A DNA stretch of 64,000 nucleotides from Lineus longissimus (taxonomy: Eukaryota). The stretch covers positions 17,830,500 through 17,894,499 of the forward strand of contig NC_088313.1 of assembly GCF_910592395.1 (NCBI RefSeq), written 5' to 3'. The notes beneath the pieces are model-generated. The model searched no databases. It had not been told where the DNA came from and was given only the letters and a program-made list of their open reading frames with translations. Positions 13,507 to 13,796 of the stretch are shown one piece after another (positions within the stretch are counted from its first letter, which is position 1; each line of letters opens with the position of its first letter). The translations under genes and the position numbers were made by a program.

Positions 13507-13796
13507 CAAAATACAACAAAGAGAAATCGAAGAAAAAGAAACAGCGACTTGCGAAGGCACAGAACGTTTTGAAGCAAGCTGAAGGTCTCTACCCCAGGGG
13601 TGGTGCGACTATGCGTGGTGTTCGTGGTGGCCGTGGGCGTGGAGGAACCCGGGGTGGCCGTGGAGGAACCCGTGGAGGAACCCGTGGAGGAAGTCGTGGC
13701 GGGCGTGGCCGGGGACGTGGAGGTGCAGGGGACAATGTGGTAGATGTCGAGTCTGGATCTGATTCTGATGGAGATGAGGATGAAATGAAGATTAAG
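13507..13796 (+). CDS. TEP1: TEP1-like exon 6. Carries an RGG/RG box: RGGATMRGVRGGRGRGGTRGGRGGTRGGTRGGSRGGRGRGRGG, followed by an acidic DVESGSDSDGDEDE stretch.
   Basis: Acceptor gatttcag, donor AAG|GTAACT. Phase is consistent. Confidence 0.75.

Follow-up and report, generated by a model that had tools for sequence, protein, structure and literature searches.

The TEP1-like locus and its neighbours

The window, by which we mean the whole 64,000-nucleotide stretch of DNA from the nemertean Lineus longissimus that was analysed here, carries a TEP1-like gene whose domain order is a low-complexity N-terminal exon, TROVE, a VWA-like region, DUF4062 (a TIR-like NADase), a putative P-loop STAND region (signal-transduction ATPase) and WD40 propellers. 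The feature under study is an arginine-glycine (RGG) box in the TROVE part of that gene. The parts of the gene to which we refer are as follows.

11145..32861, forward strand: TEP1-like gene, approximate extent, with its stop codon at 32859-32861
12209..17740, forward strand: TROVE and VWA-like (DUF5920) module, thirteen AG/GT-bounded exons with 690 open codons
12209-12337, 12633-12794, 13150-13246, 13507-13796, 13987-14096, 14421-14578 and 15006-15115, forward strand: module exons 1-7
15384-15474, 15673-15814, 15989-16163, 16355-16516, 16885-17099 and 17510-17740, forward strand: module exons 8-13
13150..13246, forward strand: upstream exon LFDDSSIKFGSLPAALRRAMVAKFPDFDKYQL(+G), the N-terminal anchor of the loop
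13507..13796, forward strand: RGG exon, 290 nt, AG/GT bounds, a single open frame
13987..14096, forward strand: downstream exon TLKEKEREKKTFTLKQLIRKLHITEPVDNVMALIGK, the C-terminal anchor of the loop, whose LIRKLH ends in the His that is aligned with Ro60 His187
15673..15814, forward strand: second variable basic TROVE loop (..GLPATDKKRRPKRTKGKAPTWQERKEQKQLKQKK; ..DKKRRPKRTKGKAPTWQERKEQKQLKQKK)

On its domain content the gene is a TEP1 orthologue, since it matches the TROVE, DUF5920, DUF4062 and WD40 families. The Pfam TROVE family (PF05731) aligned with residues 23-463 of the spliced 690-residue model over profile positions 45-442 of 442 (E 3.5e-107), and DUF5920 (PF19334), the VWA-like region of TEP1, scored 48 bits against a cut-off of 27 (E 1.5e-12). 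DUF4062 (PF13271), found on exons at about 17.9-18.7 kb and directly upstream of the NTPase region, scored 65 bits against a cut-off of 24.7 (E 5.7e-18). A Walker-A-like GKPGCGKS is present in the open reading frame at 19274-19729, and the sole Pfam match to a P-loop NTPase, for which a single exon fragment was scanned, was nSTAND1 at 19.5 bits, under the cut-off of 27.1 (E 8.6e-4). Two exon fragments matched WD40 (PF00400; E 1.8e-27 and 1e-13), and the TEP1 second-propeller family, likewise scanned on fragments alone, reached 3e-9, under its whole-domain cut-off. The initial annotation had called the gene TEP1-like and had placed the box inside TROVE, and the Pfam matches bear out both statements. 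The association of TEP1 with vault particles and with vault or telomerase RNA is given as background in PMC7916137. Three 2026 preprints describe TEP1 as a STAND protein and DUF4062 as a TIR-like NADase (in human TEP1), and in one of the three it is suggested that TEP1 may be regulated through RNA bound by its TROVE region.

The N-terminal exon of the gene (11145-11978, forward strand) is of low complexity, rich in S, T, L and G (..GLGLRSTGLGLRSVGLGGLTSLTSSG..), and had no Pfam match; it is weakly similar to the N-terminus of the Patella protein (29% identity, E 0.004). Upstream of TEP1, a 291-codon open frame at 473-1345 (forward strand) matches Pfam FAM53 (E 1.2e-21) and points to a neighbouring gene. 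Near-identical sequence occurs at 3789-3941 and 24929-25063, and again at about 4045 and about 25117 (all forward strand), one of the two places being within a TEP1 intron; with translations of PNHVDLRGPNPPSLSWLSESHGLHERTTPSPSSG and RWRWRSSFMKS..., this is probably an interspersed repeat element. Between the TEP1 stop codon and the 3' end of a CtBP-like gene lies a tandem repeat of about 928 bp (33189-35900) in three copies of 97-100% identity, whose short open reading frames had no Pfam match. The CtBP-like gene itself (41606-48864, minus strand) is 99% identical to the L. longissimus CtBP-like isoform X3, with internal exons at 100%, and contains tandem near-duplicate exons at 48269-48421 and 48066-48227. 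This identity assigns the window to L. longissimus, a heteronemertean. The NCBI isoforms X3 and X2 of L. longissimus CtBP use these near-duplicates mutually exclusively, and each has a last exon of its own (43013-43147 or 41606-41869). An open reading frame at 62947-63294 (minus strand) reads like a THAP zinc finger (C..C..FYRVPKKPSILRERWLKAIG), and matched no Pfam family at E <= 0.01.

The RGG exon

An acceptor (tttcAG at 13505-13506) and a donor (GTaact from 13797) delimit 13507-13796 as exactly one exon. The frame from 13509 (13509-13796, forward strand) is free of stops and reads KYNKEKSKKKKQRLAKAQNVLKQAEGLYPRGGATMRGVRGGRGRGGTRGGRGGTRGGTRGGSRGGRGRGRGGAGDNVVDVESGSDSDGDEDEMKIK; the remaining two forward frames carry stops. 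The exon begins in phase 1, its CA completing with the preceding G the Ala codon of the conserved motif YQLAKYN, and ends in phase 0 before TLKEKEREKKTFTLKQLIRKLHITEP; its frame is in register with conserved TEP1 text on either flank. Omission of 13507-13796 shifts the frame and leads to a stop after 3 codons, which makes the exon constitutive for a functional protein and not a cassette exon. The RGG box is thus confirmed as a genuine coding part of the L. longissimus TEP1 orthologue. That this segment encodes an RGG box followed by an acidic patch, as the initial annotation had it, holds throughout; its concern that transcripts might skip the exon is answered, as far as the DNA can answer it, by the frameshift, and its label of 'exon 6' is plausible.

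Two other ways of reading the segment were ruled out. Were the 3' splice site to move to the acceptor-like ctctaccccag near 13597, the frame that results would hit a stop at 13741, and a proline-rich open reading frame on the minus strand (13589-13873) is the mirror image of the GGN-rich coding sequence and not a gene.

Within the exon we distinguish the following blocks.

13509..13580, forward strand: K-rich basic block KYNKEKSKKKKQRLAKAQNVLKQA, net charge +9
13596..13724, forward strand: RGG box RGGATMRGVRGGRGRGGTRGGRGGTRGGTRGGSRGGRGRGRGG, 43 residues with 9 RGG and 13 RG, net charge +13
13638..13692, forward strand: 12-nt tandem unit CGTGGAGGAACC (= RGGT) inside the RGG box, 4.8 copies by Tandem Repeats Finder
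13743..13784, forward strand: acidic Ser/Asp/Glu patch DVESGSDSDGDEDE, with three S-x-x-D sites that fit the CK2 kinase consensus

The K-rich block opens with AKYNKEK, a conserved anchor, and includes a KKKK that resembles a classical nuclear localisation signal, and the tail of the exon from 13725 has a net charge of -7. The box matches the tri-RGG regular expression RGG(X0-4)RGG(X0-4)RGG; Thandapani and colleagues are said to have defined a tri-RGG in 2013 as three or more RGG with spacers of 0-4 residues. Six-frame translation of the 64 kb gives 32 RGG tripeptides, 9 of them in this box, and nowhere else do three or more RGG fall within 43 residues uninterrupted by a stop; such a concentration is far beyond chance.

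At the DNA level, overlapping periods of 21 and 33 nt accompany the 12-nt unit in the Tandem Repeats Finder output. CGT encodes 10 of the 13 arginines of the box, against 5 of the 30 in the rest of the TROVE-VWA coding sequence; glycine in the box is mostly GGA. The near-identical 12-nt units and the monotony of CGT point to much of the Lineus box being young, a product of slippage or duplication. Both the repetition of cgtggaggaacc that had been noticed by eye, which Tandem Repeats Finder recovers with a period of 12 in 4.8 copies (13638-13692), and the suggestion that the GGN-rich DNA may expand by slippage, of which a tandem 12-nt unit with uniform codons is the signature, are therefore upheld.

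Position of the loop in the TROVE fold

The box lies in a loop between a helix that ends in FDKYQLAKYN and a helix that starts with FTLKQLIRKLH. Alignment of 44 orthologues shows no variation at the F, F, Y, Q and L of the upstream exon, at the Lys of AKYN or at the His after the loop, whereas the residues between that Lys and that His all vary. A single-sequence search of the PDB returned weak TROVE matches only, together with GAR1 and THOC4 via the RGG stretch. A profile built from 53 TEP1 sequences reached the phage Ro60/TROVE structures 9l5y and 9kop at 1e-14, and the Ro60 structures 9nen and 1yvp at 3e-5 and 2e-4, respectively. Profile-profile alignment with human Ro60 (67% probability) puts the insertion just before Ro60 176-190 (GWSHKDLLRLSHLKP), a segment whose numbering was verified against PDB chain 9nen_A; FTLKQLIRKLH is there aligned on WSHKDLLRLSH, and His248 of TEP1 on His187 of Ro60. 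Just upstream, in the motif TKYKQR, Ro60 has K170 and R174, which we take to be RNA-contact residues that touch misfolded RNA. The Ro60 H187S mutant has been described as lacking Y RNA binding (review, PMC11277228).

The geometry and disorder of the loop were read from AlphaFold2 models of two orthologues, P0002 and P0038, and not from the protein of the window. In P0002 the flanks have a pLDDT above 90 and the linker overall 52-80, the K-rich stretch forming a separate helix at 75-80 and the acidic part a coil at 52-62; the best solved matches to this model in Foldseek were the Ro60/TROVE structures 9l5y and 9kop, at a probability of 1.00. In P0038, which bears RG repeats, the helix before the loop continues into the K-rich block, and the model gives the RG box as coil with a pLDDT of 40-46. 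By these models the RGG box would be largely disordered and would sit on the surface of the TROVE HEAT-repeat ring, in a hypervariable loop, and the K-rich stretch is probably helical.

Distribution of the RG box among TEP1 orthologues

We surveyed the linker in 162 orthologues in which both anchors were recognised; the named spiralian taxa are thinly sampled in this comparison. The linker is 5-240 residues long (median 49), and in 155 of the 162 the first half of it carries a net positive charge. The K/R-rich linkers of invertebrate deuterostomes and molluscs are often trailed by an acidic S/D/E patch. The box is described as a module inserted into TROVE in the initial annotation; it does lie inside TROVE, but each TEP1 already has a variable basic linker at this place, of which the box is a compositional variant.

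An RG box at the same site, with the same order of basic stretch, RG box, acidic patch and FTLK helix, was found in the clam Mya arenaria, in the limpet Patella vulgata and in sequences of bdelloid-rotifer type. The Mya protein (WAR22045.1) reads TRGGGRGRGRGASRGSRGGRGASRGARGG ... SDSESDSDSDEE, with 9 RG and 3 RGG, its deposited model being without an equivalent of the exon at 13150-13246; the Patella protein (LOC130012329) reads FRGRGRGRGGGRGRGRGGRGG ... SDSDSDSDDEE, with 8 RG and 3 RGG. In both species the deposited annotation includes the RG box as coding. More than 20 environmental (metagenome) clusters, mutually less than 90% identical, have an RG box with 4-11 RG, and the metagenome-derived P0084 also carries one at the loop site. 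The nearest named relative of the RG-bearing environmental clusters is the bdelloid rotifer Didymodactylos: the downstream TEP1 open reading frame of one contig has 58% identity with Didymodactylos carnosus across 1,992 residues and no more than 33% with anything else. In the rotifer-type contigs the box lies within uninterrupted open reading frames that span both conserved anchors, and it is written in mixed codons (CGA, CGC, CGT and AGA with GGT, GGA and GGC), in one contig on a background of 27% GC. The mixed synonymous codons in that 27%-GC contig argue for selection on Arg and Gly there.

At the first loop Solemya velum keeps a short remnant, ARGRGA. The RG box was absent at the loop in the scallop Mizuhopecten and the sea slug Elysia, and no RG was seen in the K/R-rich linkers of vertebrates (Physeter, Amia, Astyanax and others), Branchiostoma, Styela, Lytechinus and Anneissia, nor in the likewise K/R-rich linkers of the copepod Eurytemora and of Schistosoma. 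Among 94 cluster representatives (50% identity) with both anchors recognised, none had at least three RG. Given the length range of the loop and the scallop and Elysia sequences without RG, the RGG chemistry is dispensable for TEP1 in general. On the sequences compared, the RG box is rare family-wide and, within Spiralia, recurrent and patchy; its occurrence in molluscs and in rotifer-type sequences makes it a modest lineage variant and not a unique invention.

These results sort the evolutionary claims that had been made for the box. That vertebrate TEP1 has no such motif is correct for every vertebrate orthologue examined, all of which have basic linkers of the NTRKxRCK or NPRKHR type. The proposal of a lineage-specific gain is overstated, as the same site carries an RG box in Mya, Patella and more than 20 rotifer-type clusters; alignment of orthologues, the check by which the novelty was to be judged, thus takes away part of it.

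Some further differences at the TROVE loops were observed in the survey. The S. velum orthologue (P0127) has an RG box, SSRGRGVINRGQGRGRGRGRGRDRG, in the second variable TROVE loop, which indicates that RG boxes occur in either loop. TEP1 proteins of Brachionus (monogonont) type have at the first loop an unrelated insert of 220-250 residues that is not of low complexity (P0130, P0134, P0136-P0138, P0237, P0017, P0076, P0080 and P0081); it has conserved motifs, e.g. ..EDKYIK..L..G[LI]K..D.. and ..SYSHSKH..L.K[IL]N.IR[VI]SG.G[IV]KLK.L, and looks like an unrecognised folded domain. Two rotifer-type loci, L001 (27% GC) and L003 (46% GC), have the same order of a C2-C2_1 gene followed by TEP1. The rotifer-type TEP1 is almost free of introns, with open reading frames of up to 1,982 codons, whereas the Lineus gene is multi-exon and extends over about 22 kb.

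Comparison with known RGG and TROVE proteins

Vertebrate TEP1, telomerase protein component 1 and a protein of the vault, has the same domain order (TROVE, VWA-like/DUF5920, DUF4062, a P-loop STAND region that is putative in Lineus, and WD40) and the same loop anchors, YQLAKYN and F(T/S)LKxL(I/V)xxLH, but its linker of 50-80 residues is rich in K, R, P and C (NPRKHRAKRR.., NTRKQRCK..) and has neither RG repeats nor an S/D/E patch. Mya, Patella and the bdelloid-rotifer-type contigs (P0016 group, loci L001 and L003) share with Lineus the same loop with an RG/RGG box and then a Ser/Asp/Glu patch, to which the molluscs add a (I/V)VYD(D/E) segment. The Lineus box is the richest seen, with 13 RG and 9 RGG against 9 and 3 in Mya, 8 and 3 in Patella and 4-11 RG in the rotifer-type sequences; it also differs from the latter in its codons, which are a monotonous CGT-GGA and not mixed.

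Ro60 (TROVE2) and its phage and bacterial homologues (1yvp, 9nen, 9l5y, 9kop and 2nvo) have the same TROVE HEAT-repeat ring, and the equivalent of Ro60 His187 is conserved in TEP1 immediately after the loop. In Ro60, unlike TEP1, just a few residues (..TKYKQRNGWSHKD..) connect the two helices and no insertion separates them; Ro60 is also without STAND, NADase and WD40 parts.

The classical RGG/GAR proteins (GAR1, THOC4/Aly, nucleolin, fibrillarin, FUS/EWS, FMRP and G3BP1) share the same tri-RGG-type repeat chemistry, and the box aligns with the RGG segments of GAR1 and THOC4/Aly in the PDB. They show no homology to the TEP1 box beyond composition, and their RGG regions are terminal or link RRM or KH domains, whereas that of Lineus TEP1 occupies a loop within a HEAT-repeat ring, in a STAND protein of the 2,500-residue class. 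In G3BP1 an acidic IDR and the RGG region take part in autoinhibition, which the acidic region beside the RGG box of TEP1 recalls. RNA binding by RGG motifs and their methylation by PRMTs are the subject of a review (PMC9718894), according to which RGG regions also control localisation or granule association in Lsm14, G3BP1 and FUS. RGG motifs and TEP1 are each well known, and the box is already in the deposited Mya and Patella records; we found no literature combining TEP1 and RGG, and the RGG review (PMC9718894) is without TEP1.

Interpretation of the RGG box

We propose, with about even confidence, that the RGG box acts as a flexible RNA-contacting arm of the TROVE ring, of low specificity, methylatable and provided with an acidic partner. 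The box would be the middle block of a three-part and largely disordered insertion that consists of the K-rich stretch, the RGG box and the acidic patch. A basic linker is general to TEP1s, and part of it may have been turned, in several spiralian lineages, into RG/RGG repeats that would grow and shrink via replication slippage. The arm might add affinity for an RNA held in the TROVE ring, be it a vault-type or another small RNA. The box is also a likely substrate of arginine methyltransferases, and the CK2-type acidic patch could, by analogy with G3BP1, bend back and shield it electrostatically.

It is possible, at a probability that we place clearly below even, that the box reflects neutral low-complexity drift, in which a flexible positive spacer would suffice, GGN/CGN repeats would be interchangeable with lysine-rich linkers and the RGG chemistry would have no specific role. 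The tandem units and CGT monotony of the Lineus box are also what neutral expansion would look like, and the recent duplication that they record sits comfortably beside a linker of 5-240 residues and diverse composition in which nothing is general but a net positive first half. The patchy presence of the box, in Mya and Patella, absent in Mizuhopecten and Elysia and decayed in Solemya, and the lack of any representative with at least three RG among the 94 clusters (50% identity, both anchors recognised) point the same way. Neutral drift accounts less well, however, for an RG box that more than 20 diverged clusters of rotifer type keep at one position and write in mixed codons, in one case against 27% GC, for an ordered architecture of basic, RG and acidic blocks that recurs in three phyla, or for a loop that exits beside invariant residues aligned with the RNA-contact residues of Ro60.

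We consider it unlikely that the segment serves chiefly as a localisation or assembly signal, with KKKK and RGG acting as a nuclear or nucleolar import element (of karyopherin or transportin type) or as an element for condensate or vault association, tuned by phosphorylation of the acidic patch. The resemblance of KEKSKKKKQR to a classical nuclear localisation signal, the three CK2-consensus serines of the patch and the part that RGG regions play in the localisation and granule association of Lsm14, G3BP1 and FUS (PMC9718894) would all suit such a signal. Sequence, though, reads alike for a localisation role and for RNA binding, the basic-then-acidic pattern is common to orthologues without RG, and the position by the RNA-binding residues of the ring favours a role with RNA. 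Highly improbable, in our judgement, is the absence of the box from the mature protein, whether by removal of the G-rich core as an in-frame exitron or because the exon is an artefact of annotation: the length of the box, exactly 129 nt and so divisible by three, and its many GT dinucleotides would suit such removal, and exact look-ups of the open reading frames at 13569-13901 and 13611-13901 matched no record, but the box shows no strong consensus for a donor or an acceptor, its frame stays open and in register with the conserved text on either side, and homologous RG boxes lie in continuous open reading frames of the nearly intron-free rotifer-type genes and in the deposited Mya and Patella models.

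The RNA-contacting arm, which we favour, admits a more far-reaching version that we regard as distinctly unlikely: spiralian TEP1 would possess a switchable sensor arm, either ancestral or acquired repeatedly, in which a methylatable RGG region and a CK2-phosphorylatable acidic mask control both the choice of RNAs loaded onto a STAND-type, TIR-like NADase and the timing of their loading. If this were true, post-translational modification would tune an RNA-triggered response, NAD+-cleaving or vault-associated. If drift is the answer, the box would still illustrate cleanly how slippage turns over low-complexity sequence within a structured domain. Under either reading the box leaves the identity of TEP1 unchanged. 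The arm is found in a nemertean, a clam, a limpet and bdelloid-type sequences and is absent in the scallop, the sea slug and all deuterostomes examined, which makes for a small comparative system, and a recurrent RGG arm beside conserved RNA-contact residues may offer a natural handle on how the loading of RNA onto TEP1 is controlled.
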